Source: an uncultured bacterium (lineage in GTDB: Bacteria; Muiribacteriota; Ozemobacteria; Ozemobacterales; Ozemobacteraceae). From it: a DNA stretch of 23,650 nucleotides. The position numbers were made by a program, and so were the translations under genes. Each line of letters opens with the position of its first letter. Position 1 is the first letter of the stretch. The DNA lies in contig CAZOMG010000017.1 of assembly GCA_964580875.1 (NCBI GenBank), forward strand, positions 64,001 through 87,650, read 5' to 3'. The notes below the pieces were generated by a model that worked only from the letters and a program-made list of their open reading frames with translations, ran no database searches and was not told the DNA's origin. This document shows, piece after piece, positions 2,733-21,161 of the stretch.

Positions 2733-2791
2733 TATTAATCTCCTGCACCCACTCTAGCAAAATTAGATTGAATCTTGCAACACTATCCGGC

Positions 2792-3550
2792 TTAAATGCG
2801 GCCCATAAACCTGAGAATGCCTTCGAGAATGGTCCAGGGGTTCGGCGGGCAACCGGGAATATAAAGGTCGACGGGTATCAGGTCGCCGATTCCGTCGTTG
2901 ACTTCACTGTTGCCCCTGAATAACCCGCCCGAAATAGCGCAGGCGCCTGTGGCAATCACCACTGAGGGTGAAGGCAGGGCGGCATAAGTTTTTTGCAGCG
3001 CCAGTTTCATGTTCTGGGAAACTGGCCCGGTAACCAGCAGTCCATCGGCGTGCCGTGGCGAGGCGACGAACTGAATTCCGAACCTGGCCAGATCAAAAGT
3101 TGGGGTGCCAAGAACGTTGCAGTCCGCTTCGCAGGCGTTGCAACCACCGGCACTCACCTGGCGGAGCTTGAGGGAACGCCCGAAAATACGCTTGATTTCA
3201 GCGCCCATGGCTTCGGCGGTTTTAAATTCGCTGCTGCTGATCAGCAGATCGTTTTTGTGGCGTGCCGCCAGAGAAAATTCGCGGCTGAAACTGATCAGCT
3301 TGGCCGGGCAGGCTGGCTCACAGGCGCGACAGAAAATACAGCGCCCCATGTCGATTACCGGGCGGTGGTCTGAACCACAACTGACAGCACCGGTGGGGCA
3401 GACATTAATACAGGCTGTGCAGTCATTCTGGCATGTGCCGGTCGCAATCATGGGGCGGCCAGTATAGCGTGGCGCCATTTCCGGTATTTTATCGGGAAAC
3501 GGGAAGGTACGATACTGTTGGTGCAAGCGGGCTTTAAGAATCTGCAGCAT
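2792..3550 (-). CDS. Fusion protein: 2x[4Fe-4S] ferredoxin domain (HyfH/HycF/NuoI-like) + group-4 hydrogenase small subunit / NuoB-like domain (HyfI/HycG-like), 252 aa
   Basis: ATG at 3548-3550 with a GAGGT Shine-Dalgarno 6 nt upstream. The N-terminal half has two CxxCxxCxxxCP motifs (CQNDCTACINVCP, CIFCRACEPACP). The C-terminal half matches NuoB/HycG (ASPRHADGLLVTGPVSQNMKLALQKTY...VIATGACAISGG...DLYIPGCPP) and has CNAC (CxxC) in place of the complex-I CC motif, as in group-4 hydrogenase small subunits. All four proximal-cluster Cys ligands are present. Confidence 0.85.
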   Translation of the reverse strand: MLQILKARLHQQYRTFPFPDKIPEMAPRYTGRPMIATGTCQNDCTACINVCPTGAVSCGSDHRPVIDMGRCIFCRACEPACPAKLISFSREFSLAARHKNDLLISSSEFKTAEAMGAEIKRIFGRSLKLRQVSAGGCNACEADCNVLGTPTFDLARFGIQFVASPRHADGLLVTGPVSQNMKLALQKTYAALPSPSVVIATGACAISGGLFRGNSEVNDGIGDLIPVDLYIPGCPPNPWTILEGILRFMGRI

Positions 3551-3558
3551 ATTTTACC

Positions 3559-5058: not shown

Positions 5059-6617
5059 AGTATTGCACCTCCGAGAAGGGTGGCTGCCCCGTTGATGGCG
5101 GTTCTGAAAGAATCAGGCAGATAGAAGCCGAGCACTACAGCCGCCGACAGAAAAAAGACCGGCGTGATCAGCTGTAACACAGTTTCGCTAACCTCGTGTT
5201 CTTCGGCCGGAGCATGGTGTCTGCCATGTTTTCGGGTGTGTTTATGTGGTGAATCATGGTCGTCACGGTGATGATCACCACTGGATAAGGGCTTTTCGGA
5301 TTGAACGCCCTGGGTCATCTGCATAAAAATGGTCAGCATGCCGATGAAGACGATCAAGAGAAACAGCAGGTAGAAAGCGGCGATATACCAGCTGCGGGTG
5401 ACCAGCGCAGCACGCAGAATGGTGAATTCGCTGATGAAAGTTCCGAAGGGTGGTGTGCCGGTGATGGCCAGAAACCCTGCCAGCCACAACATGCCTGTGT
5501 AAGGCAGGCTTTTCAGCAACCCGGTCACCTTTTCTACCTTTTTGGTGTCGAATGCCGAAAGAATATTGCCGGCGAGCAGAAAGAGCGAAGATTTGACCAG
5601 TGAGTGGCAGATGGCGTGCAGCATGGCGCCGGCGATTGCCGCGCCACCCAGACCGATACCGGTGGCCAGGATTCCCATGTGCTCGACGCTTGAATATGCG
5701 AGCATCCTTTTATAATCGGGCTGATGTAGAATAAAAATGCCCGAAACGCCCATTGAGACGATGCCGGCAATGACAAGAAGCTCAGATGCAAAAGCGGCGG
5801 TGGCGGGCAGGGCGACGCAGACCTGATAAATGCGAAGAATACCGAGAAAGGCACAGTTCAGAAGGCCCCCTGAAAGCATAGCCGATACGGGTGACGGCGC
5901 TTCGCTGTGGGCATCTGGAAGCCAGGTATGCATTGGCGCAAGACCCATTTTGGTGCCGTAACCCACCAGAACAAAGATAAAGGCGACCTTCAGCCACCTG
6001 ACCTTGAGATAGCCGGCGTAAAGAACCAGCCCGGCGGGGGTAAAGAGCTCAACATGATGCGTAGCGGTCATCGCCAGAAAGAAAACACCCATCAGCGCCA
6101 GCGCGATGCCAACTGAACAGATAATCATGTATTTCCAGGCGGCTTCGAGCGAGCGTCGGCTGCGGTGATAATATATCAGCGGTGTGCTTGCCAGGGTCGT
6201 GGCTTCGATGCCGATCCATTGCAGGCCGAAGTGCATACTGAGAATCGCCAGACTCATGGCCGCGAGAAATAACTGCATACAGGCGGCATAGATGGCGTTA
6301 CGGTTTTTGAGAAACTGCCAGTTGGCAAGATCAGAACCGTCTTCTTGCGGGTGTTTGTCGAGGTAGACCATTGAATAGATGGCTGAACCGGCGAACAGCA
6401 GACTGGTCAGCGACAGAAAAATTCGGGTAAGGTGGTCGACGCCGAGCCAGACGCCGTTCAATTCTCCGGCGTCGCCTTTGCAGAGGCGAATGACCAGAAA
6501 AAGATGCACAAAGGCGACTATTACAAGGATATTCTTGCGCAGGCGCTCTGAATCAATAAATAACGAAATAATGCCGGTAATTACCGGAAGAATGATCAAT
6601 GCCCAGGCGGTATTCAT
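5055..6617 (-). CDS. Antiporter-like membrane subunit, HyfF/NuoN/NuoM (MrpD) family, with a His-rich insertion loop, 520 aa
   Basis: ATG at 6615-6617 overlaps the upstream stop (ATGA). The protein is polytopic, with the conserved TWLPDAHSEAPSPVSAML motif typical of proton-pumping NuoL/M/N-type subunits. A His-rich segment (SSGDHHRDDHDSPHKHTRKHGRHHAPAEEHE, residues about 445-475, nt about 5193-5285) precedes the last TM helix. Confidence 0.8.
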   Translation of the reverse strand: MNTAWALIILPVITGIISLFIDSERLRKNILVIVAFVHLFLVIRLCKGDAGELNGVWLGVDHLTRIFLSLTSLLFAGSAIYSMVYLDKHPQEDGSDLANWQFLKNRNAIYAACMQLFLAAMSLAILSMHFGLQWIGIEATTLASTPLIYYHRSRRSLEAAWKYMIICSVGIALALMGVFFLAMTATHHVELFTPAGLVLYAGYLKVRWLKVAFIFVLVGYGTKMGLAPMHTWLPDAHSEAPSPVSAMLSGGLLNCAFLGILRIYQVCVALPATAAFASELLVIAGIVSMGVSGIFILHQPDYKRMLAYSSVEHMGILATGIGLGGAAIAGAMLHAICHSLVKSSLFLLAGNILSAFDTKKVEKVTGLLKSLPYTGMLWLAGFLAITGTPPFGTFISEFTILRAALVTRSWYIAAFYLLFLLIVFIGMLTIFMQMTQGVQSEKPLSSGDHHRDDHDSPHKHTRKHGRHHAPAEEHEVSETVLQLITPVFFLSAAVVLGFYLPDSFRTAINGAATLLGGAIL

Positions 6618-7288
6618 TCGTCTGCCTCCTCAACCACCGTAGCGGCAATTTCAAGGTCTGAAAGTTCGTTGAAGCGGTCGGCATCAAGGTGATCAAATTC
6701 ACGGTCAATATGGAAAAGCATGATGCCCATGAGGAAAATTCCGACAAAAACGTCGAGCAGAATGCCCAGTTCAACCATCGTTGAAAATTCGCTGCCAAGA
6801 CTCAACCCGGTGGTGAACACCCCGTTTTCGAGCACCAGAAAGCCGAGGGTCTGGGTAAGCGCCTTGCGACGGGTCATCAGAAGCAACAACCCTGAAAAAA
6901 CCAGAAAGAAGCCGCAGGTAAGTGCCACCGGAGATGCGATCGGGTCGGTTTCCAGCAGGGTGCTGACGATCCAGCCAGAAACGGCCAGAAGAAAGACACC
7001 GCACAGCATCGAGGCGCCGAAGCTGATAAAGGGTTCAATTTCGCGTTTGGTACCTGAGACAATCATGGCTTTATTGAGCAGCCATGGCAAAAGCCCGCTT
7101 TTCAAAACGATACTGGTAATCGAGAGGATGACCAGACCTGGGGTGAGATGCCCTGGCCCGACTGCGAACAACTGCAGAAGGCCAAGCAGCAGACCCTGAA
7201 AAGCCACCATGCGGATTGCGACACGCAGGCGACTCGAACCGAGCAGTAACAGGCATGATAATGTAAGTAGTGTAGCGATGCTGTTCAT
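6614..7288 (-). CDS. HyfE-like small membrane subunit (NuoK-related) of hydrogenase-4-type complexes
   Basis: Hydrophobic protein of about 224 aa. LGFLVLENGVFTTGLSL matches the conserved FGYxLMENG region of E. coli HyfE. The ORF track starts at a TTG at 7309; an ATG at 7286-7288 (MNSIATLL), 7 nt after the HyfC-like stop, is the more likely start. The stop overlaps the next start (ATGA). Confidence 0.65.
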   Translation of the reverse strand: MNSIATLLTLSCLLLLGSSRLRVAIRMVAFQGLLLGLLQLFAVGPGHLTPGLVILSITSIVLKSGLLPWLLNKAMIVSGTKREIEPFISFGASMLCGVFLLAVSGWIVSTLLETDPIASPVALTCGFFLVFSGLLLLMTRRKALTQTLGFLVLENGVFTTGLSLGSEFSTMVELGILLDVFVGIFLMGIMLFHIDREFDHLDADRFNELSDLEIAATVVEEADE

Positions 7289-7295
7289 GATATTT

Positions 7296-8216
7296 TCAGT
7301 TCCCTGCAATCTTGAGAATCAGAGCAATAATGGCGAGAGCGCCAGAACCGACAATGAATTTCGGAATATGAATCAGCCGCATTCTGGCGATCGTTGATTC
7401 AATCATGCCGATCAAAACGGCAACCAGAAACATGCCTGCTGCGAAAACCGGAAAATGCAGCAGGGTTGGCATGGCCGGAGTGCTGATCACCAGCCCGACC
7501 AGAAGACCCGAAAACAGCCAGAGTTTATAGGCCGCGGCGTATTCGATCATCGCCAGATCCTTGCTGCTGTAATCGAGAATCATCACCTCGTGAATCATCG
7601 TCAGTTCAAGATGGGTGTTGGGGTCATCGACCGGAATTCTCGCATTTTCGGTGAGCAGTACGATCATCCAGCTCACGGCGATCAGCAGCATAATGGCAGG
7701 GTTCTGTTGCCAGTGCCCGGGCGACAGTTCGGCAAAAATGCCCGAGATACTGAGACTGCCGGTTTCGTATATCAGCACGAGCAGCCCGCAGAATAGCGCC
7801 GGCTCAGCAAGGGCGCTATAGAGCACTTCACGGCTGGCGCCCATTCCCTCAAAGGCTGAACCGCGGTCAAGAGCCGCCGTTACCATAAAAAACCTCGCAA
7901 TGCCCAACAGGTAGGCCATAAAGATGATGTCACCCGAAAAAGTGCAGCAGGCCGGGTTGAAGAAGCCGGGCATCAGCAGGCCGGCACCGATGGTGGCGAA
8001 GAAGATCGCGAAGGGTGCGAGTCGGGTGAGCAGCGTTGCGGTGCGGCTATAGGTCGCTGATTTGTGCATCAGTTTAAACAGGTCAAAGTAGAGCTGGGTA
8101 ACCGGGGGGCCCTTTTTGCCGCCGAAGAAGGCTTTGACCTTGTTGATAATACCCGGAAACAAAGGGGCAAGAAACAGCGACAATATAAACCAGAGGATCG
8201 ATGTGTTATTGATCAT
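7296..8216 (-). CDS. HyfC/HycD/NuoH-like membrane subunit (respiratory-chain NADH dehydrogenase subunit 1 family), 306 aa
   Basis: ATG at 8214-8216 overlaps the upstream stop (ATGA). Eight-TM protein with the NuoH-like N-terminus (PLFPGIINKVKAFFGGKKGPP...) and the conserved TMIHEVMILDYS and ELSPGH-type motifs. Confidence 0.8.
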   Translation of the reverse strand: MINNTSILWFILSLFLAPLFPGIINKVKAFFGGKKGPPVTQLYFDLFKLMHKSATYSRTATLLTRLAPFAIFFATIGAGLLMPGFFNPACCTFSGDIIFMAYLLGIARFFMVTAALDRGSAFEGMGASREVLYSALAEPALFCGLLVLIYETGSLSISGIFAELSPGHWQQNPAIMLLIAVSWMIVLLTENARIPVDDPNTHLELTMIHEVMILDYSSKDLAMIEYAAAYKLWLFSGLLVGLVISTPAMPTLLHFPVFAAGMFLVAVLIGMIESTIARMRLIHIPKFIVGSGALAIIALILKIAGN

Positions 8217-10201
8217 ATTACAGCTACTTTCCAGAGCAGCAGGGCGAGAAGTGCAATGGCCAGATAGCCGACATAAAGGTGCAGATGGCCATGTTGCAGT
8301 GCTCTGAGTGGAACCACCAGCCGGTCAATCAGGGCGAAAAGCGGCAGAAAAAGGTAGCGCAACAGGGAGTCGGGCGCTTCAGTTCTAAAACTGGCGTGTT
8401 GCGGGAACAGGCCGCTGACCTTTTCGCCATGGCGAAAGGGTCTGACGATACTCGAAAAAACTTCAGAAACAGGCTGAGAGAAAGATGACGAAGTATATTG
8501 AATACGTGCATTGGGGGCGGCAAAACCGCAGTCCCAGGTGGGGCGATCCTGGACTTCGCCTTTGGAAAAGCGGCTTTTCTGGATGCGCCAGCCCAGCATG
8601 ACCAGTATGATCAATGCCAGTGAAAAAGCCGATATGGCACGCAAAGGCACGGCCGACAGCAGAAGATCATCGGCCGAAAACAGCATGCCGGCGGGGGCGC
8701 CGATCTCGGCAACAACGCGTGAAACCGGCAGCAGTAACCAGGGCGACAGCAAAGCCACTGAAAAAATAGCCAGAACGAGAATTGCCATGGGGAGCCTTAC
8801 CAGCGGTTTTATTTCCATGGGTGGTGGTTGTTTTTCTTCTCGCGGTGCGCCGAGAAAAACCAGCCCGAAGGTTCGTGAAAAACAGGCGGCGGCCAGGCCG
8901 CCGATGAGACCAAGACCGGCCAGCACAGTAGCAGAGAGCAGCAGGGCTGATGAGGTTCCGAGGCGGGTCGCTTTAAGCCCGGCCAGAAAAATGAGAAATT
9001 CACTGACAAAATTGTTGAAGGGCGGGAGACCGGCAATGGCGGCCGAACCTATTCCAAAGGCAAGGGCCGTGAACGGCATCGACTTCGCGAGCCCGCCCAT
9101 TGACTCCAGTTTTCTCGTTCCGGTGCCGAAATAGACGGCCCCCGAACCAAGAAACAGCAGGCCCTTGCAGATTGAATGATTGAGAATGTGCATCAAGGCA
9201 CCGGCTAAAGCTGCAAAGGCCATGGCCGGCAGCTTCCAGATGGTGGCAAGCACTGCACAACCGAGAGCCATGAGAATAATACCGGCGTTTTCCATGCTGC
9301 TGTAGGCGATGACTTTTTTAAGGTCATGCTGCACCAGCGCGGTGATCAGGGCAAAAACCCCGGTTAACAGGCCGCCGAACAGCAGGGTCCAGCCCCAGGA
9401 TGCCTGTTGAACCGGCAGAAACATCATGACCCTCACCAGCCCATAAAAGCCCATTTTGCTCATCGCACCCGACAGAACTGCCGAAACATGAGCGTCGGCA
9501 AAGGTATATGAATCAGGAAGCCATACATGTAACGGAATCAGCCCGACCTTAACGCCAAACCCGAACAGGGCGAGAAAAAAAATCGTCGAATAAGAACCGT
9601 AGGTGGCTGGAGCATTCAGAAACTGGTCGAATTCAAACGAGCCGGCCGAAGCGCTCAGCAGACCGAAGAGAATGAACAGGCCGGCTGTGCCGATGTGACT
9701 GGCCACCATAAAACGCCAACCGGCGTTGCGAACCGTGCCGATTTCGCTGCGGTGTGTAATGAGAAAAAAAGCTGCAACCGACATGATTTCCCATTCCATG
9801 AGAAAGAGGACAGCGTTGGCGGAAGCGAGCAACATCAACATCGAGGCAATCAGCAGGTTATAAAAAAACCAGTAACTGCCCAGGGCATGCTTTTCGTCAT
9901 AATGGGCGGTAGCGGCGGCATAAATTGCTGCGAGTGAGCCGAGCAGAATAACAGGCAGTGCGAAAAATGCCGATACCTGGTCAAGGCAAAGGGTAGCCGG
10001 GCCGAGGGGCAGGTTGAGCAGATAGCGACCGGTATCAGAAGCAAAAAACAAGCTTTGACAGACAGTCACCAGGGCCATTGCACAACCGGCAAGACACGAA
10101 AGGGCGCCGATCGCTGAAGAAAGGTTGCGCATGCGGCCAAAAAGTCCGGCGAAGCTTCCGCCGACTATAATAATCAAAATTGCGGTTAAAAAGAGCTGCA
10201 T
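8213..10201 (-). CDS. HyfB/HycC/NuoL-like antiporter-type membrane subunit, 662 aa; first gene of the operon
   Basis: ATG at 10199-10201 with an AGAGG Shine-Dalgarno about 9 nt upstream. Large polytopic protein with the HVWLPDSY and AGLPPFNNFVSEF motifs characteristic of the NuoL/MrpA/HyfB family. Preceded by a 420 bp intergenic region. Confidence 0.8.
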   Translation of the reverse strand: MQLFLTAILIIIVGGSFAGLFGRMRNLSSAIGALSCLAGCAMALVTVCQSLFFASDTGRYLLNLPLGPATLCLDQVSAFFALPVILLGSLAAIYAAATAHYDEKHALGSYWFFYNLLIASMLMLLASANAVLFLMEWEIMSVAAFFLITHRSEIGTVRNAGWRFMVASHIGTAGLFILFGLLSASAGSFEFDQFLNAPATYGSYSTIFFLALFGFGVKVGLIPLHVWLPDSYTFADAHVSAVLSGAMSKMGFYGLVRVMMFLPVQQASWGWTLLFGGLLTGVFALITALVQHDLKKVIAYSSMENAGIILMALGCAVLATIWKLPAMAFAALAGALMHILNHSICKGLLFLGSGAVYFGTGTRKLESMGGLAKSMPFTALAFGIGSAAIAGLPPFNNFVSEFLIFLAGLKATRLGTSSALLLSATVLAGLGLIGGLAAACFSRTFGLVFLGAPREEKQPPPMEIKPLVRLPMAILVLAIFSVALLSPWLLLPVSRVVAEIGAPAGMLFSADDLLLSAVPLRAISAFSLALIILVMLGWRIQKSRFSKGEVQDRPTWDCGFAAPNARIQYTSSSFSQPVSEVFSSIVRPFRHGEKVSGLFPQHASFRTEAPDSLLRYLFLPLFALIDRLVVPLRALQHGHLHLYVGYLAIALLALLLWKVAVI

Positions 10202-10622
10202 ATATAACTACCTCTGGGTGCGTATCAGTTGCATGTGCTTTTTTACGCCTACTGCTCACCTTTTGCAAGTCTTTTAAAAAAAATCTCGCAGAATACAGAG
10301 AGATTTTGCATTTGATCTGGCGCATACGGTGGGCCTGGGGTCAGCATTTTTGCCCCCCTCGGCAATCATTGTACGCATGTACCCGTAAAATTAAAAAAAA
10401 GTTAGCTTACTCTTGGAAATTACGAAAATTTCGGTTAGAATGAAAAGCACGGAGATTCCTGCACCTCGCTGAAAATATTGAAATTGTTTCGCAGAGCATG
10501 GTTACGGTTCTGATTCGGTTGTCGCGATGAGTGGTTTCAATATAATCTGATCTGCAGGTTGACCCGGTGGTGTTTTGGGTTCTTTTGTTGCTGCTTTGAC
10601 TTCTTTTAACGCGTAACGATCA
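10202..10622. promoter_or_regulatory. Divergent intergenic/promoter region between the Ehr-like operon (minus) and the lipase-PhaR-like bicistron (plus)
   Basis: 421 bp non-coding stretch, relatively AT-rich, with two A8 tracts (10276-10283 and 10393-10400). A near-palindrome GTACGCATGTAC lies at about 10369-10380. I could not pick out a convincing sigma70 or sigma54 hexamer pair by eye. Note that with the later GTG start of the lipase gene (about 10704) the non-coding region extends to about 500 bp. Confidence 0.4.
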
Positions 10623-12020
10623 ATGATTATCCTTGTCAGAGCACAGCAGAGACTGCATGAAGAGTATAGTGTTACCTCTCGTTTGAAAGGTGATAGAGTA
10701 GTGATTAGAAATTGCCTGCCATTGCTTCGTATCCGAATTGCTTTATCTAAAGTCGCCTGCCTCGGGCTGCTTTTGTTGGTTTTGTGCTGGCCTGCAACCG
10801 CCGGCGCGGTTCTCAATGTCGTCAGTGAATTGTCGGGTCGTGACTGCTCCCCCTGGGAGCGCACCGAACTCATTGCAGACGACGACGCGCATTTTATTGC
10901 TGAGCCTTTTCATCTGAAGAGTCGTCATACTCACAGCATTGTTTTAAAAGCCTTCGGCACCGCCAAACCACATTCGCGCAATTTTCTGCTGCATTTCGCC
11001 CCCCGCTGGGATCGCCCCCGCCAGAAAGTGCCGGTTTTGCTGGTGCATGGCGCCGGTGATAACGCCTGCCGGGGTTTTTGCCACCCATATTCCTTCGACC
11101 TCCCCGAATCCGGAACCATTGACAAACCAGGTATGATGCAGCATCTGGTCCGTGAGGGTTTTTCGGTGTTTGGTATAACCTTTTCACATCCGCATGGCGA
11201 TAACTTTTTGCAGGCGCAGCAGGTTGCCAATGCTATCGCCCGCATTCGCGAGCTGACCGGTTCCGAAAAGGTCGATATTGTCTGTCACAGCAAAGGTGCC
11301 ATGTCGGTGCGAATTTATGCTTCCGATCTCGGCAGTGAATACCCTGAATATGCCTGGTTGACTCCCTTTCGCCACGACATCAGAAAAATCGTTTTTGTCG
11401 CATCGCCTCTCAAGGGCATTGATACTGCCTTCAGATATTACATGTATAATTTTACTGTCATGCAGCAAAAACTTGCCGCGCCGCTTGGCCCGCGTTCAAT
11501 GGCCTGGCAGGGCATGTATGTCGACAATGAAAGCCACAACCGGCTTTTTCCGGGGCAGTTTCAGATGTTGCATAACTGGGCCAACGATGGCATTGACCTG
11601 AGTGGTCAAAGTCTTACTGCAGATGCAAATATTACGTGTAAAGCGCTTTATAACGGTGGCGTCAGTGCGATGCTTGTTTCAGATGGCATTGATCGTGCTA
11701 TACAGGAATCCGGAAATGTGATAGACTCTCTCTGCAAAAAGGGAGTCGACCCCTCGATCACCTGTCATATTCTCGCCGGTACCGACCAGAAAATCGACAC
11801 TCTGAAGCTTTTCTGGCTTGAGCTTCCGGTCGGCGAATTTGCTGACAGCAGCGACGGGGTCTTGTTTCTCAAGAGTGCGACCTATAAGAAGGGTTTGACA
11901 GCCCGCGGTGCCAAGGTTGCCAGTGTCAAGACACTGAACATGCACCACGTTGGCGTGACCGTTCGGCCAGAAGCGCTCAATCACATTTCCGAGGTTTTAC
12001 GTGAAAGAAATTCTGATTAA
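10623..12020 (+). CDS. Secreted lipase/esterase-like alpha/beta hydrolase (family I-type lipase motifs), 465 aa by ORF track; probable true start at GTG about 10704
   Basis: A hydrophobic signal-peptide-like segment (ACLGLLLLVLCWPATAGA) follows an internal GTG at 10704, which has a strong AAAGGTGA Shine-Dalgarno 7 nt upstream. Oxyanion-type VLLVHGAGD and nucleophile-elbow VCHSKGAMS (x-H-S-x-G) motifs resemble Bacillus/Pseudomonas true-lipase boxes. The stop at 12018-12020 overlaps the next gene's start. Confidence 0.7.
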   Translation: MIILVRAQQRLHEEYSVTSRLKGDRVVIRNCLPLLRIRIALSKVACLGLLLLVLCWPATAGAVLNVVSELSGRDCSPWERTELIADDDAHFIAEPFHLKSRHTHSIVLKAFGTAKPHSRNFLLHFAPRWDRPRQKVPVLLVHGAGDNACRGFCHPYSFDLPESGTIDKPGMMQHLVREGFSVFGITFSHPHGDNFLQAQQVANAIARIRELTGSEKVDIVCHSKGAMSVRIYASDLGSEYPEYAWLTPFRHDIRKIVFVASPLKGIDTAFRYYMYNFTVMQQKLAAPLGPRSMAWQGMYVDNESHNRLFPGQFQMLHNWANDGIDLSGQSLTADANITCKALYNGGVSAMLVSDGIDRAIQESGNVIDSLCKKGVDPSITCHILAGTDQKIDTLKLFWLELPVGEFADSSDGVLFLKSATYKKGLTARGAKVASVKTLNMHHVGVTVRPEALNHISEVLRERNSD

Positions 12021-12576
12021 AAAATACGACAACCGTCGTTTGTATTGCGTTGAAGAAGCCAGATATGTTTCCCTCACCGAGATTCGCGATTTTTTGCAAC
12101 GCGGCGACAAGGTCAAGGTTGTCGAAAAAACCACCGGCAAAGATATCACCAAATACATTCTGATGCAGGTGATGCTCGAAGACCGCTATGAACTGGTGCC
12201 GACCTATTTTTACCAGATGATGCTGCAATCACAGCCCGAAGCACTCGATTATTTTTTCCAGCAGTTCTTCCCCTGGATGATGAGCATGTACAAAAACTAC
12301 CAGGAAGGCAAATTCGCGTTGCCGAGCATGCCCGGCATGCCAGCCATGCCCAGCACGCCGTTTCAGAATCCCTGGATGCAGATGCCCAACCCTTTTCAGG
12401 GCATTAACCCTTTTATGCAGCAGGCGGCGACCCCGCAGTCAACCGCGACTGCTGCCCCTCCGCCCCCGGCCGGCAAAAAAGCGGGCAAACCTGAGGCTCC
12501 CGCCTCCGGTGATGATAAAATGGCCGAGATTCTCAAGCGCCTGCGCGAACTCGAAGAAAAGCTGCACTCAGAGTGA
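12001..12576 (+). CDS. PhaR-family DNA-binding protein (PHA/PHB accumulation regulator N-terminal domain) with Met/Pro/Gln-rich low-complexity C-terminal tail, 191 aa
   Basis: GTG start at 12001 with a GAGG Shine-Dalgarno 7 nt upstream; the start lies 20 nt inside the end of the lipase gene. The N-terminus (ILIKKYDNRRLYCVEEARYVSLTEIRDFLQRGDKVKVVEKTTGKDITKYILMQVMLE) closely matches the conserved PhaR N-terminus (IKKYPNRRLYDT..S.Y.TL.DV....VKVVDAKSG.DLTRSILLQIILE). The C-terminus (MPGMPAMPSTPFQNPWMQMPNPFQGINPFMQQ...) is low-complexity and ends in an amphipathic helix. Confidence 0.75.
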   Translation: MKEILIKKYDNRRLYCVEEARYVSLTEIRDFLQRGDKVKVVEKTTGKDITKYILMQVMLEDRYELVPTYFYQMMLQSQPEALDYFFQQFFPWMMSMYKNYQEGKFALPSMPGMPAMPSTPFQNPWMQMPNPFQGINPFMQQAATPQSTATAAPPPPAGKKAGKPEAPASGDDKMAEILKRLRELEEKLHSE

Positions 12577-12617
12577 TAACTTGCGTTGCTTCTGAACGCT
12601 GAGAGCGTTAGAATCGG

Positions 12618-12653
12618 GCGACTGTTTCACATGGAACAGCCGCCTTTTGCTTT
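12618..12653 (+). terminator. Rho-independent terminator candidate after the lipase-PhaR-like bicistron
   Basis: GCGACUGUUUC-ACAU-GGAACAGCCGC forms a stem of about 10 bp (one mismatch, one G-U pair) with a 4-nt loop, followed by CUUUUGCUUU. A second short hairpin, AACGCT-gag-AGCGTT, lies at 12595-12609. Confidence 0.5.
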
Positions 12654-12772
12654 AGCCTGCTCTGACAGGGGTTTATATCAGATATGCTTCTTTAAAAGTT
12701 TTCTGACCGGCCCTTCACCGACTGTAAAAATTTTTTGCCCCCGACAAACCCGCTTTCTGTTATGATTATATT

Positions 12773-13510
12773 ATGAAATACAAACTGACCGGTGGGGTAC
12801 TGTTGGTGGTTTTGCTGCTTCTCGCTGTCTTTGCATCAGGCTCTGACGGCAAGCGGCGCAGCAGGGCATTGGCGATCATGCGCCAGGCCCGGGAGTTTCA
12901 TCTGGCCGGGCGACATGCAGATGCCCAGAATATGCTGCTCAAAGCCCGCTTCATCTGGAAAGAAATCCCCGAGCCAGACTGGGCGGCAGGGTCTCACCAG
13001 GCATCTTCAGCACAAGACTATGCAGTTTCTATGCAAAAACGCCACTCTGACCGGGTGGCCGCAATTCTTCTTGAGGCCCGGCAGGCTCACACGCGCTGGG
13101 ATACGGAACGCGCCCGGGCGCTCATCGTGCAGGCCCGCATTCTTGAACCCGGTTTGCCTGACCCTGAATGGCTTAAAAGCCCGCCCGGGCCTCGGGTTGC
13201 AGCCGAAAAGCCTCTTGACCGCCAGCAACTTCTGGCGCAGTTGCGTGCCAGGCCTGATGAGGCAAGCATGCTTGCCCTCGAAAAGCATCTAAGAGATCAC
13301 CCGGGTGACGAAGAAGCCCGCAAACTTCTCATGCAGACGGCGATCTCCGTCGGTGCTGTCAATGTGTTGCAGCGCCTTCCCGGTGCCGGTGGCCGGCAGA
13401 CTGATGGGCAATTGCTGCTCGTCTGCCTGAAATGGTTCGGGCTGCTGCTGATTCTGGCCACGCTGATCTGGCAGACCCACAGTCTCTGGGTTGATTTTAA
13501 GCAGCATTGA
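12773..13510 (+). CDS. Hypothetical protein with N-terminal signal peptide or anchor helix and C-terminal hydrophobic helix (bitopic prediction unverified), and an internal ~37-aa duplication, 245 aa
   Basis: ATG at 12773. N-terminal hydrophobic segment (VLLVVLLLLAVFASG) and C-terminal hydrophobic helix (WFGLLLILATLIWQTHSLWV). Two aligned repeat units: AIMRQAREFHLAGRHADAQNMLLKARFIWKEIPEPDW and AILLEARQAHTRWDTERARALIVQARILEPGLPDPEW. The charged helical central region may be TPR/Sel1-like. I recognise no family. Confidence 0.55.
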   Translation: MKYKLTGGVLLVVLLLLAVFASGSDGKRRSRALAIMRQAREFHLAGRHADAQNMLLKARFIWKEIPEPDWAAGSHQASSAQDYAVSMQKRHSDRVAAILLEARQAHTRWDTERARALIVQARILEPGLPDPEWLKSPPGPRVAAEKPLDRQQLLAQLRARPDEASMLALEKHLRDHPGDEEARKLLMQTAISVGAVNVLQRLPGAGGRQTDGQLLLVCLKWFGLLLILATLIWQTHSLWVDFKQH

Positions 13511-13635
13511 GCGGTATCGATTCATCGATCACGATGGCGACGGGGCACTGTCATTTCCCCTGAATTACGCCCGCCACCATGAAGTATTTGCATTTTTATA
13601 AAAATAAGACTGTCATAAGAACACGGAGATTCATC

Positions 13636-16600
13636 ATGTTGAACAATATTGGCACTGGTAAGCAAGGCTTTGTTTTGGTTTTGCTCGTGGCTTTGCTGGT
13701 TTTTTGCCAGGCCAATCCGGCGACGGCTTTGCAGCAATTACGATACCCCACTTTCGCCACCCCCTGGACAGAAACAGGCAAAGTTTTAGCTGCTGAGCCT
13801 GTTCTGTTTTCTAACACGACCCCTAATACTTCGGGGAACGGTCGCCGGGGTCTCTATGAGCGTCCCAATCAGTCAGGCACCAAGCAGGGCGATGGTTACA
13901 TGCAACTGGCATTTCCGGCCGTCGCTAAAAATGCTTCAACCACAGTATTGGTGCTTCTGTCTGTCAGAGAACCTACTCTTGCAAAACAGGCCAATAAGTG
14001 GTCGATGACCACAAAGGGTACCATCAGAAAATCCGATGAAACGGTAATTGCTGACCTTTTTAGCCGCACTTTGATTGAAGGTCAACAAACAGATACCTGG
14101 CAAGATCTGACCTGGAGCGGCACTCTGGCGCCTGCCGGTGTGAACGAACGCCTTTTCCGAATCTACTGGTTCATAGAGATCGTTGCCAACAACAAAGATC
14201 AGGTTGGAGCCGACTTCAGTGACGTTTACCTGCACATGAGCCCTTGCGGCCTGGCGGCCGCCGAAGAAGCGGTTGATGGTGGCGGAGTCACCCTCACCTG
14301 GAACCCAAGCGCACCGGGTACTGGCCAGCCGGGTTTTGATCCTGCCACCGCTCCATATCGTATTTATCGCCGCACCGACCCTCTGGCAGAATGGCAGTTG
14401 ATCGCCCAGTGGCCAACCGCGCCATGGGTGGCACCGGCGGCCACCACCTATACAGATACCACCTCACCTGCTTCAGAGACCGTATATTACTGCATAACCG
14501 ATTTCGACACCAATCTTTATGAATCGCCAAAGTCGCCCGAAGCTGTTTTTAAACCGGCCAGGCTGGTAATCGATGAGGTGACATCTGGTTATGAATCGGT
14601 CACCATCGGTCAGACGGCCGAAGTTTATGTTAAGCTGCACAACTCTGGCAACAGCCCCATCGATCTTTTTGCCCTCGAACTTGATTTTGAAGGCCCGGCT
14701 TCAGCGGCCTACTCTGTCGTGCCGCCGACCCTGTCGCCGGCTGCGCCTTTGACGCTTGCCGGGGGAGCGAGTGCCACTCTGACTTTTCAGGTGACCATAC
14801 TCGATAACCTCACTGCCCCGGGCTTCGAAACGATAAATGCTTCGGGGGCAGCACGTGCCACCGTCCGCAACCTTACCGTCACCGATACCCAGGCCGACGA
14901 CGACAAGAAAGAACGCTGGACGATCTGCTGGCCAGCTTCCCTTGAAATTACCGAAATAACTGTACCGCCCCGGGTTTTTCGTGGCCAGGTCGGAGCCACC
15001 ATAGACATTACTACCCTGAATAACGGTGGTGAGAACGCGGCGGGTGAATGGCTCAATACCGCGTTTAAGTTTGAGCCGGGCGGCGCCGTCGATTTCACCA
15101 ACCTCAGACTTGACCCGTTGAATACTTTGCCGGTCGAGATTAGCCAGAATAATACCATTACCAGGCGTTATCTGGTCGATGTTTCGGCGAATGCCCAGAT
15201 TGGGCCTTGCAATATTTTTGGCCGCATCTATTACCAGGATGTCAACCTGCGGGGCGACAGCGATTTCTGGACTGACTTCGATGATTCACCGGTCGCTTCC
15301 TGGTCGGTTCTGGCCGGTATCATGCGCACCTTCAGAACGTCATCGTATCTGACAGCCACCAGTACCTTCAATGCCGGCGCCAACAACGTGTTTGCCAAAG
15401 CTGAGAACCTGCAGCCTCTGACCAGTCATCGCTTCAGGTGGTTTGACCCTGATGACCATGAGGTTCTGACCAGCGGCATGGTGCAGACCAACGATCTGGG
15501 GGTCATGACCTATGAATTCCCGCTGACTGGTGCAGCCCATGGCCGCTGGCGGGTGGTGGCAACCAAGCCGCTGCTCGACACGCCACTTGCCGAAGCTTAT
15601 TTCTGGGTCCAGGACCCGGCTGCTATTTCAATCAGTCTGGGCATTCCGCCAATAATTGTCGAAAATCGCTACTTCAACGCTACCATGACGATGACCAACA
15701 TCGGTGAAGCGGCAGTTGCCCAGGCCTATGCCGGTTCGATTCTAAGAGTTAACAGTGTGGGCAACGCCAGTCTGGGTTCATTGCCGACTCCGACCTACCG
15801 TACCATCAGTGGCTTTGGAACTGGTATGTTCAGCTGGGGTTTTACTGCCACCACCATGGGTTCCTACTCATTGGAGGTAAAGGGCTACGGTTACGACGAC
15901 AACGACGGACGCTTTCTTGAAACGGCGAGTGTAACCAGCAATGTGGCCACGATCACCACGGCGCCAGTTCTCTCGGTAACCGGGGTGAGCGAGACCTATG
16001 ACAATGTATCACCAGGGCAGGCAAACCTGACCGTCAATATGGATATCGCCAACACTGGCGGCTCGCCGGTGTATGTTAATGCTGCGTCTCTGACCTTTGA
16101 TTCTGGCGCAGTTGCCCAGAGTTACACCCAGGTTTACGCTTCGCCGCCGGTATTTCCGTTCGTTCTCGATGGTAACTCAACCGCAAGAATCGTTTTTACG
16201 GTGGCGGTTGATGCGAGTTCACTGCCGGGTGCTGCGCTTATCAGGGGTTCTTTTACCGCATCCGAGGTTTACGATCTGGCGTGGGGCTACGGAGTGCCGC
16301 ACGGAGGTGGCACCGGGAACTGGACGGTTGCCGACGTTTCTTACGGTGAATGCAGTGCCAACCAGGATTTTCTGCCGCAACAGTATACGTTTAACCAGAA
16401 TCAGAGAATTTATGTCAGATTTCATAATGTGCCCGACAGTAAAAAAAATAATTATGCTGTTCTTTTTTTCGATGATGAAACCCTCGGAATCATCGGTGAT
16501 GAGCGGGAGTCGGTCTATGGTATTCCTGCCAATACTGAAAAGACGGTGACCACCAATGTTCAGCTGCCTGGCGACGCAGCAGTCAGAAAGTGGCGGGTTG

Positions 16601-19600
16601 AGTGCTGGGAAGCCGGTACTTCAGGGAAGCCAGTCGGCACAGAAGCTCTTGCAACGCAGTATTTTTGGGTCGAATACCCGGGGCAACTGGTTGCAACGCT
16701 GACGGTCAATGTTGAAGATGGCGTCGATCTTGGTGAGCCGATTACGGTAACCATGTCGCTGGCCAATGAGGTTGCCAGCAGTGCTGTCGTTTACCCGGCT
16801 TCGGCCACGACACCGATTAAATTCGCCGGCACCGGTGCGGTCAGCCCCTTGACTTACCCATCACCTGATACGGTCAGCATTCAGTATGGCTACCCGGCCA
16901 CCTTCACCTGGACATTCATGACCGATGCTTATTCGATCTTCGATACTTTTCAGTTGACATCGACGGCTACCGGCGTCGATCGTAACACGGCCAGCGCCCC
17001 TGAACTCGAGCGTCTTTATCCTTCAGTAACTGCATTTAGCAAGGCGTTTCGTATTTATGACCGCAAAATGACCATTTCCCCGATAACCCTCGATTTTGGC
17101 ACCATGATTCACGGTGAAACCAAGGTCATCGATGGCATAACCATCAATAACACCGGCAATGCCACAATGACCAATATTCAGTGGCAACTTCTCGACCTCG
17201 AAAGCCCCGAAGAAAACAAACTGCCTCTCAGTGCCTTTTTCCCGCTGCCTTCCCCGGAGGCTCCTTTTACCCTGAATGCTCCCGGCATTCAGACCGGTTC
17301 TTTTACTCTGACGCTTCCTTACAATCAGGCTTCAGGCACTTATGAGAAGCTTCTCTGGGTCTACGACGACGTCAACTATGATACGCAAAAAAATGCTACC
17401 GAGCCGGCGGCATCATTCACCGTCAGAGTCACTGCCAGCGAATGCAGCCATCTGGTTGTATCGCCGCAGATCATCGATCTGGGCGGCTGGCCCAAAAATA
17501 TCACGACCGCTTCGAAAACCCTTAGTCTTTTCAGCGGCGGCAACCTTGACCTGACGAATGTAAAATTCAAAGAAATAGCTTCCGACTCAAGTTTGACGAC
17601 GCTGAATGTTCTGCCGGCAACTCTTGGCAGTATGGTTGCCGGTTCGGTTGCGGTGGCCGAGGTGTCGGCGAGTATCGGGGCTGAAGGCAGCGGGCCTTAT
17701 ATTGCTACCTGGTCGGCCTATGATGATGGAAAATATGCCAGCGCCACTTTTCAGATTCGCTTTTCGGTGGGTGCCAAGGTTTTCGATGCTACTTCCGACC
17801 CGGTCAACCCGGTGCCGCAACCGGTTGCCATGGGCGCCGGCAATCCTGACAACAGTATCGAAAACGTCTCGTTCACGATTCGCAACACCTTGCCGGCCGG
17901 TGAACTGCCGATCCTGGCGCCCCGGTCTTACTGCACGGGTTTGCAACGCACCACGAGCAGCCCCGATCACACCCTGCCACCCGAAGACAACATCATTGTC
18001 GAACTGCCGGCCGGGCCGATCCCCTATGGTGAAACGCGCCTGGCAACCCTGTCGATATTCATTCCGCCCGGCACGCCTGAGGGCGACTACGAAGGTGTTA
18101 TAACCATCTATGACGACGAAGATGGCTTTGATTCAACCTCTGCTTTCGATATGCAGGTAACGCTTACCGTTAACCCGTTTTTTGCCATATCGGTGCTCGA
18201 TCAGACCGTAGATGTTGGGGGTATTTCGCCCGACGGCTTCAAACAGAAAACTTTCAAATGCATGAATATCGGCAGTTTGCATCTCGCGAGTATCTCATGG
18301 CTGATGAGTGCTTTCTCTCCGGTTATTCCGGTGGGCAACTATTCGATTGAGGTGCCTGCGAACGCCGCGATCGGCACTCTGTTTCTGGCGACCGTAACCA
18401 TGGATCTCAGCGGTCAGGCCTTTGGCACCTACCTGGCTTCTCCTTCATGGCTCTATAACGACCTGGATGGTGGCGGAAAAAGCGACCCGGCCGATGCGGC
18501 TGATAATTTTGGTGTCAAATGCCAGGTCGGCAATTTCGATCTGGATATCATCAATACGGCCCTTGTGGCGAGCGGGGTTCCGAATGCCCTGTCTGATGTG
18601 GTTGGCTTTGAAGTCTACAACACCGGCAATCTCGACCTTGAACTGCCAAAAATTCGGGCGATAGCGGATCTCACTCTCGATGCTTCGAACAAAATTTCTA
18701 CCACCGCCTGTGTTTTTACTACCATACCGATAATCAAGCCGCATACGGGCAATTACGGTAGCTGGGCAGTGCAGACGCCGCCTGCAACCATGGATGGTGA
18801 ATATGTTGGTAGTCTGAAAGTCTGGAATGACGATGATGGCGATGGCTACCCCGGTGATTTTGAGGCTTCTGATACGGTGGCCGTCACCATGAAGGTGTTG
18901 CCGAATACCTCGATGATCGCCACCCCTGACCCTTGTCTGTTGCCGGTCACCAGGCCCGGCGGAACTGCTACCGCCAAATTCCATGTGGTAAACACTGGCA
19001 ACCGGGTGGTGGCGCTGAGTTCTATTACTAAAGCCGCGCTTATCCGAACCTCCGGCGGCAGCATTCCGGTTGGTAATATCGGCTTTACCGCCATACCGGC
19101 CAATATTCCGGTTGCGCCGGCTGATGGCTATCTGGCCACGGTCACAGCAACGGTTACTGTGCCGCCCAGCCAGGTGCCGGGCACCTATTCCGGTATTCAG
19201 GTTATCAACTACGATGGCAAACAGCTGACCTTCGTTCTCGAGATAACGGTTGGTGAGAAGAAGATTGCAGTAACCAGCCCGGTTCTGTTGGGCACTTCGT
19301 ACCCGAAAGATTCGGTTTCGGCGAGTTTCAACGTTACCAATGAAAGTTCAACGATCGTTCTCGACAGCATCCGCTGGTTGAAGGCAGATTTTAATACCTC
19401 AGGCGCCGAAACTTTTTCTGCCGCTGCCCTGACTTTTTCAGATGAAGATGGTTTCGGGGTCGCGCCCAGTCAGACGAAAGCCATGACGGCTTTTGTGACG
19501 GTACCCGCCGGGAAGCCGGCGGGCAATTATATTGCCACCATTACCGCTTTCGACGACCAGATTGCCAACGGGGCCTATGATGATGGTGAAGCTTCGCGAA

Positions 19601-21158: not shown

Positions 21159-21161
21159 CAA

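Follow-up and report, generated by a model that had tools for sequence, protein, structure and literature searches.

A predicted exported hydrolase whose gene overlaps phaR in a Candidatus Rifleibacterium genome, and its link to PHA gene clusters

Results

A two-gene operon encodes a predicted exported hydrolase and PhaR

The stretch of DNA analysed here (the window, 23,650 nt) comes from a Candidatus Rifleibacterium MAG. It carries a two-gene operon made up of a sigma-70 promoter, the gene for a predicted exported hydrolase (HYD), a coupled phaR gene and a terminator. The features of the operon are listed below; here and throughout, HYD residues S223, D411 and H442 are numbered on the 465-aa ORF.

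10413..10441, + strand: sigma-70-type promoter of the hydrolase-phaR operon (TTGGAA-N17-TAGAAT, from a consensus scan)
10450..10600 (approximate limits), + strand: lineage-specific insertion of ~150 nt in the 5' leader
10686..10693, + strand: RBS AAAGGTGA of the hydrolase gene (conserved GAAAGGTGA), 8 nt before an invariant GTG
10701..12020, + strand: hydrolase gene HYD, 439 aa from GTG 10701
10701..10808, + strand: putative Sec-type signal peptide MIRNCLPLLRIRIALSKVACLGLLLLVLCWPATAGA/V with its inferred cleavage site, read from the sequence
11034..11060, + strand: oxyanion-hole motif VLLVHGAGD, residues 138-146
11283..11297, + strand: nucleophile elbow C-H-S-K-G, residues 221-225, with S223 (S197 of the 439-aa protein)
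11853..11855, + strand: candidate catalytic Asp, D411 (SDGV), invariant in 44 homologues
11946..11948, + strand: candidate catalytic His, H442, invariant in 44 homologues
11991..12020, + strand: translational-coupling junction with GAGG Shine-Dalgarno (11991-11994), phaR GTG (12001) and hydrolase TAA (12018-12020)
12001..12576, + strand: phaR gene, 191 aa (PF07879, 68.4 bits; TIGR01848, 66.3 bits)
12013..12186, + strand: N-terminal DNA-binding domain PHB_acc_N of PhaR, residues 5-62
12319..12480, + strand: Met/Pro/Gln-rich low-complexity linker of PhaR, approximately residues 107-160
12511..12570, + strand: C-terminal amphipathic helix MAEILKRLRELEEKLH of PhaR, residues 171-190, a predicted helix
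12616..12654, + strand: intrinsic-terminator-like hairpin and U-tract at the 3' end of the bicistronic operon, from folding

The longest hydrolase ORF (10623-12020, + strand, 465 aa) and the phaR ORF (12001-12576, + strand, 191 aa, GTG start) overlap by 20 nt, exactly as the original prediction had it. The start of the hydrolase has to be revised from ATG 10623: the true start is almost certainly GTG 10701, since neither the RBS GAAAGGTGA nor this GTG varies in the upstream alignment, the N-termini of homologues align at it, and NCBI calls the identical protein (HNX74740.1/HPT46228.1) as 439 aa. The GAGG Shine-Dalgarno lies 6 nt upstream of the phaR GTG, and the proposed translational coupling is borne out by relatives: 25 of 27 related loci retain an overlap (20, 32 or 8 nt) with a GTG start and a GAGG-like Shine-Dalgarno, and the overlap is conserved from Rifleibacteriota to Wallbacteria. 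Because of this retention, and because the hydrolase has 142 homologues and PhaR 97, we regard both as real genes and not chance ORFs.

The operon promoter is nearly invariant in an upstream alignment (A3) of 10 related loci. The leader insertion is missing from 9/9 other aligned relatives, and L001 and L002, contigs of the same strain, are the only ones that have it; it contains a 9-nt inverted repeat (10475-10483/10535-10543). Folding of the 5' leader gave no significant RNA structure (z -0.37), and a search of the whole window, leader included, found no Rfam families or tRNAs. At the other end of the operon, the hairpin at 12616-12645 is followed by UUUUGCUUU and folds like a terminator, with a modest z-score of -1.84, in agreement with the terminator predicted after the pair; a simple terminator scanner overlooked it because of one internal mismatch. 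Terminator-like hairpins with T-tracts, stronger than that of the window, also follow phaR at two related loci (L003 and L004).

HYD is a predicted Ser-Asp-His hydrolase with a putative Sec-type signal

To judge from its sequence, HYD is a Ser-Asp-His alpha/beta hydrolase whose catalytic residues are intact. Both motifs named in the original prediction are present, and across 44 homologues P137 and G143 of the oxyanion region are invariant (L140, H142 and A144 nearly so), as are S223, K224 and G225 of the elbow, D411 and H442. In a profile search the oxyanion region aligned with that of PhaZ7, and the elbow CHSKG aligns with AHSMG of LipA-type lipases. The remaining two residues fall in second HMMER stretches of low score: D411 aligns weakly with the S-D-Y of lipase Lip_vut1 (6nkc), and H442 with the His of (S/G)-H-(V/I)-G-L in Lip_vut1 and Bacillus LipA. 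We take D411 to be the counterpart of the catalytic Asp of LipA, and H442 is presumably the catalytic His. An AF2 model (mean pLDDT 91) has an alpha/beta-hydrolase core. HYD also has a conserved DTAFRYYxYN segment.

HYD passes the cut-off of Pfam Lipase_2 (PF01674; 23.1 bits vs 20.3), a family matched by 36 of 44 HYD family members at E <= 0.001. Together with the complete triad, this upholds the description of the protein as a lipase-like hydrolase; "lipase" as a label for its activity is not established, and the genomic context described below points to PHA, not lipid. Thirty-three of 44 relatives match DUF7379 (PF24096) at E <= 0.001, which makes it the nearest named family, one that HYD itself does not formally pass (27.3 bits vs a gathering cut-off of 33). 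The sole NCBIfam match is to the PhaZ7 model NF050060, over residues 134-276 and at 29.7 bits vs a cut-off of 450. By sequence, the nearest solved structures are LipA-type lipases (6nkc, 2.7e-10; 1i6w, 1.3e-8) and PhaZ7; PhaZ7 is not the closest fold. The HYD family is small (124 cluster representatives), and in the literature on DUF7379, on Rifleibacterium/Ozemobacter and on Riflebacteria with PHA we found no functional work on it.

Set beside these proteins, HYD resembles Bacillus LipA and PhaZ7 only remotely. Bacillus subtilis LipA and the family I.4 lipases (Lipase_2) are its top matches among solved structures; however, at 181 residues LipA is a minimal lipase that lacks a lid and has less than half the length of HYD, and the alignment is confident only around the nucleophile, the Asp and His stretches being low-scoring. 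About 100 residues align with PhaZ7, the extracellular native-PHB depolymerase of Paucimonas lemoignei (NF050060; PDB 2VTV, 4BRS), whereas HYD is ~100 residues longer, has its own N-terminal domain and an insertion, carries an invariant Lys at X2 of the elbow and is encoded beside PHA synthesis genes. To our knowledge PhaZ7 is not encoded with such genes.

The N-terminus of HYD has a positive n-region, a 13-residue hydrophobic core and an A-G-A/V site (judged by eye and by hydropathy). These features are typical of the signal peptide named in the original prediction, and HYD would cross the cytoplasmic membrane by Sec-type export. PHA-linked members of the family keep signal peptides or lipoboxes, the cyanobacterial members having lipoboxes.

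The regulator is best read as an orthodox PhaR

An HMM search agreed with the original prediction on the PhaR family of the second protein: PF07879 (PHB_acc_N) matches residues 5-62 at 68.4 bits vs a cut-off of 25. TIGR01848 is covered from model position 2 to 102 of 107, at a score (66.3 bits) under its equivalog cut-off of 109.45. Close homologues all begin MKEILIKKY, and Y9, N11, R12, R13, L14 and Y15 are invariant, giving the motif Y-x-N-R-R-L-Y. In the AF2 model residues 1-60 have block-mean pLDDT values of 90-96. The tail LPSMPGMPAMPSTPFQNPWMQMPNPFQGINPFMQQ is present in the low-complexity segment, which had been called odd; the segment is disordered in the model (pLDDT below 55) and aligns with the usual variable Pro/Ala/Met-rich linker of canonical PhaR proteins (PF07879 + PF05233), which runs from the helical middle region to the C-terminal amphipathic helix. 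The C-terminal helices align with each other as well. PF05233 (C-terminal PHB_acc) gave no match in the window protein at E <= 0.1, and by alignment its architecture is collinear with that of PhaR proteins bearing PF05233. The AF2 model has no significant match among PDB folds, and a search of PDB sequences with the PhaR profile gave none. An orthodox PhaR seems to us the best reading of these data.

HYD-phaR heads PHA gene clusters in related bacteria

The pairing of such a regulator with an exported hydrolase had been thought unusual. In relatives, a conserved PHA gene cluster opens with the overlapped pair as its first module: in Rifleibacteriota and Wallbacteria the pair heads the full arrangement HYD-phaR / phasin-phaB-phaC-phaE-phaC2-phaA, where phaR gives way to a phasin-like gene and phaB, then to a class III phaC and a phaE-like gene, and last to another phaC of Cys type and phaA. 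The full cluster is present on an Ozemobacteraceae chromosome (L003/L020), in Wallbacteria (L004), in Ozemobacter sp. (L017) and at five more MAG loci (L021, L025, L026, L028 and L036), one of them named UBP16. In HGW-Riflebacteria-1 a single contig reads HYD-phaR-...-245aa-giant-phasin-phaB-phaC-phaE-phaC2-phaA, and at L090 the giant gene likewise adjoins the phasin gene. Of the lipid or polyester theme first proposed, the polyester link therefore stands, through the PHA clusters; the pair is no lipid-sensing oddity.

In the genome of the window, the phasin-phaBCE-phaC2-phaA half lies at a second locus. Its PhaC (HNX75329.1/HPT45771.1) shares both accession series with HYD (HNX74740.1/HPT46228.1), as would be expected if both proteins came from one pair of MAG assemblies. 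The assignment of the two loci to one genome is as good as the MAG binning. The PhaC also occurs in JGI sample 3300025867, as does HYD. Loss of PHA synthesis in this lineage was considered and rejected, since these MAGs, and this sample too, contain phaC and its partners. On gene order, HYD-phaR is best described as the detached leading module of an ancestral PHA cluster.

On the class III PhaC model TIGR01836 the PhaC proteins of the clusters score 198-223 bits, below the cut-off of 365. One of them, 'ABH2', was tried as an intracellular depolymerase on account of a weak PHB_depo_C match and rejected, since its motif is G-x-C-x-G-G and its score on the class III model is 223 bits. Since both PhaC paralogues carry G-x-C-x-G-G, HYD is the only Ser-type hydrolase in the clusters. 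As in class III/IV PHA clusters (phaE/phaR-phaC, phaA, phaB, phasin), the relatives and the second locus of the window genome carry phasin-phaB-phaC(G-x-C-x-G-G)-phaE-like-phaA; in contrast to them, the PhaE-like gene here stands between two Cys-type PhaC paralogues, and the predicted exported hydrolase and phaR open the cluster.

Across the wider family, a PhaC-type gene was found in the fetched flanks of 29 of 80 species-level HYD loci (nearest distance 11 nt to 7.3 kb), and PhaC and/or PhaR lie near HYD in 47 of the 80. HYD-linked pha loci occur in Rifleibacteriota, Wallbacteria, Muiribacteriota, Planctomycetota, Cyanobacteria, Sericytochromatia and one Desulfotomaculum. In Ca. Ozemobacter sibiricus (L037) a HYD paralogue sits within the synthase operon, with gaps of 11-18 nt. 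Many members (Syntrophomonadaceae, Clostridium, some Riflebacteria paralogues) have no pha neighbours within 10 kb.

Phasin promoters carry operator-like boxes

In Bradyrhizobium, DNase footprints gave the PhaR operator consensus TGCRNYGCASMA (PMC6201568), and the R. eutropha operator is a palindrome (PMC12849132); footprints in these two organisms place boxes flanking the -35/-10 of phasin promoters (PMC6201568, PMC12849132). We found a perfect TGCAACGCAGCA just 3' of the phasin promoter -10 at L086:3340-3351, L089:8328 and L090:8371. It matches TGCRNYGCASMA perfectly, and the second locus of the window organism is included. A second box-like element overlaps the -35 and spacer of the phasin promoters. 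We consider TGCAACGCAGCA a putative PhaR operator, to which PhaR would bind.

The window was scanned with regular expressions, with a PWM built from the phasin-promoter boxes and with the published consensus. No TGCRNYGCASMA box was found in its three intergenic regions; with at most one mismatch the whole window has 7 matches vs 10 expected by chance, all within coding sequence. The HYD-phaR promoter (10413..10441) has no PhaR box, and 5' of HYD in 29 loci boxes are sporadic and unconserved.

By these comparisons the window protein shares with PhaR/AniA of Ralstonia eutropha, Paracoccus, Bradyrhizobium and Sinorhizobium the same PHB_acc_N with KKY-NRRLY, the helical middle, the low-complexity linker and the C-terminal amphipathic helix. 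Its relatives are likewise encoded in a PHA cluster beside phasin genes, and the phasin promoters here likewise have TGCRNYGCASMA boxes around -35/-10, a cognate PhaR operator being of this form or a palindromic GC-N-GC core. It differs from them in the lack of a detected PF05233 and in its TIGR01848 score (66 vs a cut-off of 109). Its gene, with a GTG start inside the gene of a predicted exported hydrolase, is translationally coupled to the latter, whereas their genes stand alone; its own promoter yielded no PhaR box; in its own genome it is unlinked from phasin and pha genes; and it comes from a candidate phylum, PhaR/AniA from Proteobacteria.

Discussion

We favour, with moderate confidence, a PHA-cluster-derived operon with an orthodox PhaR and an exported hydrolase acting on PHA as the best explanation. 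An ancestral cluster would have had the order HYD-phaR / phasin-phaB-phaC-phaE-phaC2-phaA; in the window lineage its biosynthetic module is now at the second locus, and a surface-protein module (245-aa and 2317-aa genes) fills the spot beside phaR. Going by other PhaR proteins, PhaR would bind TGCRNYGCASMA-type boxes around the -10 and -35 of the phasin promoter, and forming PHA granules would titrate it away, releasing phasin expression. HYD would be an active exported Ser-Asp-His hydrolase, most likely an extracytoplasmic esterase on PHA, and its targets could be amorphous or native granules from lysed cells or hydroxyalkanoate oligomers. It would then be a functional analogue, from a different family, of PhaZ7 of Paucimonas lemoignei or of the periplasmic PhaZ1 of Rhodospirillum rubrum. 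HYD could represent a novel type of PHA depolymerase that works outside the cytoplasm, with a substrate that we infer.

PHA granules are cytoplasmic, and so an exported enzyme in a synthesis cluster is no obvious fit. R. rubrum PhaZ1 is a precedent, being a signal-peptide-bearing, native-PHB-specific depolymerase in a PHA accumulator that is classed among the 'periplasmatic PHA depolymerases' of the PHA Depolymerase Engineering Database (PMC2666664). It belongs to another family, with a type-2 catalytic domain like that of extracellular dPHB depolymerases, and no sequence relation to HYD was detected. In favour of the best explanation, PhaR represses depolymerase genes in Bradyrhizobium and Sinorhizobium (PMC6201568, PMC12542648). 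Against it count the low score on the PhaZ7 model, the many family members with no pha neighbours, and the coupling of phaR to HYD, unmatched by a conserved PhaR box at the HYD-phaR promoter.

HYD might instead be an ordinary secreted lipase or esterase (for triglycerides, phospholipids or waxes) with no role in PHA, its linkage to pha genes being historical only. We think this unlikely: HYD is found linked to PhaC-type genes repeatedly, in several phyla far apart and with gene orders that differ, the HYD gene set 11-18 nt from its neighbours inside a synthase operon is hard to square with hitch-hiking, and the overlap with phaR persists from Rifleibacteriota to Wallbacteria. Moreover, a true PHB depolymerase, PhaZ7, belongs to the same LipA-like superfamily and gives similar match scores.

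There is a still smaller chance that HYD acts on some other extracytoplasmic ester linked to hydroxyalkanoates (e.g. complexed oligo-PHB on envelope proteins), or that it is an acyltransferase or thioesterase. Predicted export is conserved though the neighbouring genes make a cytoplasmic polymer, HYD has weak matches to Palm_thioest and LCAT-type families, and neither PhaZ7 nor any known lipase has an equivalent of ~170-200 of its residues (the N-terminal domain and the large insertion), all of which would suit such an activity; however, there is no positive evidence for these substrates, and the thioesterase match stays below its cut-off (25.8 vs 26.8 bits).

The preferred reading, a hydrolase acting on PHA, can be taken further, in a form that we offer as speculation with little probability of being right. 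HYD, the 245-aa membrane protein and the 2317-aa Ig-repeat surface protein would form an extracellular system for capture and digestion of PHA granules, in which the giant protein binds granules from lysed neighbours and HYD depolymerises them. The coupling to PhaR would tie this scavenging to the internal store, and HYD would found a new depolymerase class common to Rifleibacteriota, Wallbacteria, Planctomycetota and Cyanobacteria/Sericytochromatia.

The known PHA depolymerases are a small and varied set: at the time that eight superfamilies were drawn up, only ~30 enzymes had been validated (PMC2666664). Further ones are sought for bioplastic recycling and in connection with anoxic carbon turnover. 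The locus flags a small family of putatively exported hydrolases whose genes adjoin those of PHA synthases in several phyla far apart, with co-translation with PhaR in two candidate phyla. Should these enzymes prove to degrade PHA, uncultured anaerobes would have supplied a new depolymerase class and, after R. rubrum PhaZ1, a second extracytoplasmic enzyme wired into a storage-polymer cluster; if HYD is a plain lipase, the finding is ordinary. The TGCAACGCAGCA box on phasin promoters would extend PhaR operator logic, mapped in Proteobacteria only, to candidate phyla.

Finally, the original prediction also had PhaR sense what HYD acts on or releases, whether lipid or polyester, and control the adjacent 245-aa/2317-aa surface cluster. 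The 245-aa and giant genes are syntenic with HYD-phaR across the Rifleibacterium/Ozemobacteraceae clade and lie between phaR and the phasin gene in two lineages, which makes phaR, surface module and phasin repeated neighbours. Such control is nevertheless the least probable of the readings: the window intergenic regions lack the box, leaving no evidence for it; the 245-aa and giant genes have no upstream PhaR-type box in the window and no consistent one in eight relatives (absent or with 1 mismatch), whereas perfect boxes are seen at the phasin promoters of these contigs; between phaR and the 245-aa gene lies a terminator-like hairpin; where the cluster is simplest (the clades of L003, L004 and L017) there is no surface module at all; and an extracellular substrate is beyond direct sensing by a cytoplasmic repressor. 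Among the boxes checked near the 245-aa and giant genes of relatives, most fall in coding sequence. The best PWM match in the window (score 15) lies at 12091-12107 inside phaR, on F-L-Q-R codons; it was rejected as an operator and treated as a by-product of coding, since relatives vary synonymously there (TTG/CTG, CAA/CAG).

A conserved hydrolase-phaR gene pair

The window comes from a MAG of Candidatus Rifleibacterium sp. (phylum Rifleibacteriota). The genes considered here are:

10623-12020, + strand: longest ORF of the lipase-like hydrolase (HYD), 465 aa, from the ORF list
12001-12576, + strand: phaR, 191 aa, GTG start, from the ORF list
12773-13510: 245-aa membrane protein
13579-20532: 2317-aa Ig-repeat surface protein
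20637-22499: 173-aa/445-aa (DUF4124) pair

The last three entries accompany HYD-phaR within the Rifleibacterium clade. As the original prediction had it, HYD and phaR are both present and overlap by 20 nt, with a GAGG 6 nt upstream of the phaR GTG in the window sequence, and the motifs claimed for the hydrolase are found at residues 138-146 (VLLVHGAGD) and 221-225 (CHSKG) of the 465-aa ORF. The first observation thus holds, but the HYD start at 10623 had to be corrected. In an upstream alignment of ten related loci the GTG at 10701 is invariant, the ribosome-binding site GAAAGGTGA is conserved and a sigma-70 promoter, TTGGAA-N17-TAGAAT (10413-10441, also seen in a promoter scan), is nearly invariant. 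Since the N-termini of HYD homologues also align at this GTG, and the NCBI model of an identical protein has 439 aa, we conclude that HYD is a 439-aa protein. In this form its N-terminus is MIRNCLPLLRIRIALSKVACLGLLLLVLCWPATAGA/V, by sequence a typical Sec signal peptide. The terminator proposed after the pair is terminator-like on folding (hairpin 12616-12645, then UUUUGCUUU); a simple terminator scanner did not pick up the hairpin because of one internal mismatch. The overlap, with its GTG start and GAGG-type SD, is kept in 25/27 loci (20, 32 or 8 nt), so the pair has conserved its translational coupling.

HYD and PhaR as protein families

Pfam gave weak alpha/beta-hydrolase matches for HYD: Lipase_2 scored above its cut-off (23.1 versus 20.3 bits) and DUF7379 below (27.3 versus 33 bits). 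The sole NCBIfam match was the model of PhaZ7, an extracellular native-PHB depolymerase, which scored 29.7 bits where its cut-off is 450. A PDB profile search returned LipA-type lipases (2.7e-10 to 1e-8) and, at about 1e-7, PhaZ7; the nucleophile elbow aligned clearly to these matches, the Asp and His stretches only as low-scoring second stretches. Lipase and depolymerase are inseparable by structure comparison. Residues S223, K224, G225, D411 and H442 are invariant among 44 homologues. This is a small family with sharp limits: 1.84 billion proteins yielded 124 cluster representatives at E <= 1e-30. Literature searches found nothing on the family.

The predicted PhaR-type N-terminus was confirmed by PF07879 (PHB_acc_N; residues 5-62, 68.4 bits, cut-off 25). 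TIGR01848, the PhaR equivalog model, spans positions 2-102/107 at 66 bits, below its cut-off of 109. When aligned with 26 homologues that included canonical proteobacterial-type proteins with PF05233, the window PhaR is collinear with the latter: a DNA-binding domain in which Y-x-N-R-R-L-Y is invariant, a helical middle region, a low-complexity linker that varies and an amphipathic helix at the C-terminus. The Met/Pro/Gln tail, first taken as odd, is simply the lineage version of this linker. All close homologues begin with MKEILIKKY, which supports the phaR GTG at 12001. The AF2 model is confident over the N-domain (block-mean pLDDT 90-96, residues 1-60) and disordered in the linker. PhaR matched no solved structure by sequence or by fold, and this appears to hold for the whole PhaR family profile used, beyond the window protein alone. 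As a member of a known family the window PhaR is ordinary, though in a new phylum; what is novel is the HYD family and the conservation of its coupling to PhaR.

Linkage to PHA synthesis clusters

The HYD-phaR operon is a remnant of a polyhydroxyalkanoate (PHA) cluster. Homologues of the two proteins lie on common contigs with neighbouring locus tags, and the overlapped pair heads a cluster in an Ozemobacteraceae chromosome (58% identity) and a Wallbacteria MAG (51%). There, six genes follow directly: a 100-aa phasin-like gene, phaB, a class III phaC, a phaE-like gene, a second phaC-type gene and phaA. Both PhaC paralogues carry a G-x-C-x-G-G Cys lipase box, so HYD is the sole Ser hydrolase of the cluster.

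We surveyed 80 species-level loci encoding HYD relatives, searching their ORFs with seeds from these two clusters. PhaR was found in 29/80 and a PhaC-type gene in the fetched flanks of 29/80 (the nearest 11 nt to 7.3 kb from HYD), one or both being present in 47/80. Loci with a linked PhaC-type gene belong to Rifleibacteriota, Wallbacteria, Muiribacteriota, Planctomycetota, Cyanobacteria, Sericytochromatia and one Desulfotomaculum; in Ca. Ozemobacter sibiricus a HYD paralogue sits within the synthase operon, phaC2-HYD-phaE (L037:8680-14124). A signal peptide is retained by the PHA-linked members, with a lipobox instead in cyanobacterial lineages; Syntrophomonadaceae members have neither signal peptide nor pha neighbours.

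The L037 paralogue belongs to a second HYD subfamily (also at loci L035, L041, L045, L047, L049 and L058), which retains the signal peptide, has no adjoining PhaR and lies between PhaC-type and phaE-like genes, separated from them by 11-170 nt. In Cyanobacteria and Sericytochromatia, the homologues (L054, L056, L060, L061, L065, L073, L074) have lipoprotein-type signal sequences (e.g. LTMAGC, LLAAC, LISAC) and adjoin PhaE- and PhaC-type genes. In the PHA clusters of the window organism's second pha locus (L086:4775-7346) and the Ozemobacteraceae chromosome (L003:13273-15841), two class III PhaC-type paralogues, each with the G-x-C-x-G-G Cys box, flank a short PhaE/PhaR(Bmeg)-like gene, a double-synthase layout that seems unusual.

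In the window genome the PHA cluster is split. Downstream of phaR, the window clade has the 245-aa membrane protein and then a ~2300-aa protein with Ig-like repeats. A single contig of HGW-Riflebacteria-1 (L014+L089) reads HYD-phaR-...-245aa-giant-phasin-phaB-phaC-phaE-phaC2-phaA, and at locus L090, too, the phasin gene is immediately preceded by the 245-aa and giant genes; this gene order indicates that the surface module was inserted between phaR and phasin. The accession series of PhaC HNX75329.1/HPT45771.1 are the same two as those of HYD HNX74740.1/HPT46228.1, and this PhaC is in the same JGI sample, on a phasin-phaB-phaC-phaE-like-phaC2-phaA contig that lacks phaR.

PhaR operators

Phasin promoters across these phyla have TTGACA-N17-GATAAT in common, and TGC-rich boxes lie within the spacer and immediately downstream of the -10. 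The box TGCAACGCAGCA at L086:3340-3351, L089:8328 and L090:8371 perfectly matches TGCRNYGCASMA, the consensus from DNase footprints of Bradyrhizobium PhaR (PMC6201568), and is compatible with the palindromes described for R. eutropha and S. meliloti (PMC12849132, PMC12542648). Its placement around the presumed transcription start resembles that of the BS2 binding site of R. eutropha phaP1.

Across the whole window, the Bradyrhizobium-derived consensus with <=1 mismatch gave 7 matches versus 10.05 expected by chance, none within 10202-10700, 12577-12772 or 13511-13578, and a PWM scan likewise found no box in these intergenic regions. With no box in 10202-10700, there is no sign of PhaR acting on the HYD-phaR promoter. 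The suggested PhaR control of the surface-protein genes is unsupported, as no box lies upstream of them in the window and none is consistent upstream of the 245-aa or giant genes in relatives. Given boxes on phasin promoters and none in the window's intergenic regions, the predicted target of the window PhaR lies in trans, at the phasin/pha locus.

The top PWM match in the window (score 15), TTTTTGCAACGCGGCGA at 12091-12107, lies within phaR over codons F-L-Q-R-G-D; synonymous variation in relatives suggests a coding by-product rather than an operator. Two PhaR-consensus boxes, TGCGTTGCAGAA / TGCAACGCAGAA, form a perfect palindrome within the 3' part of phaA at L086:8246-8260. R. eutropha phaP3 contains an intragenic PhaR site.

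A possible mechanism

One bicistronic message would be made from the sigma-70 promoter, and ribosomes ending HYD translation would reinitiate at the phaR GTG, tying PhaR output to HYD output. The window PhaR would repress the phasin promoter until titrated by nascent PHA, the established PhaR mechanism. HYD is predicted from its signal peptide to be exported. Because HYD is recurrently linked to PHA synthase genes and remotely related to PhaZ7, our best guess is that it is an esterase acting on PHA or oligomers outside the cytoplasm; this substrate assignment is the weakest step of the proposed mechanism. Precedents for an extracytoplasmic depolymerase are PhaZ7 and the periplasmic R. rubrum PhaZ1 (PMC2666664), and in rhizobia depolymerase genes are under PhaR control (PMC6201568, PMC12542648).

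Other elements near the pair

The HYD 5' leader carries a ~150-nt insertion (about 10450-10600) that the nine other aligned relatives lack. Within it lie an inverted repeat of 9 nt (10475-10483/10535-10543) and, at 10519-10546, a strong sigma-70-like site, TTGTCG-16-TATAAT. The insertion could represent either a small mobile element or a second promoter. Two further elements are possible regulator sites: a TGTAC(C)GC box (about 10375-10395), which most of the ten aligned loci have some 20-40 nt before the HYD -35, and a conserved non-coding block, CAGTTGCATG...CTTTTGCAAGTCTTTT (10225-10275), which adjoins the hydrogenase start and occurs only in loci with the hydrogenase operon. The minus strand at 267-10201 holds this group-4 membrane-bound [NiFe]-hydrogenase/Mrp-like operon (2792-10201; Complex1_49kDa, Oxidored_q6+Fer4, two Proton_antipo_M, NADHdh) and an MscS channel gene (267-2732). 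An MscS gene directly follows phaA in the Ozemobacteraceae (L003) and Wallbacteria (L004) loci, suggesting that MscS is a synteny anchor of the old PHA cluster.
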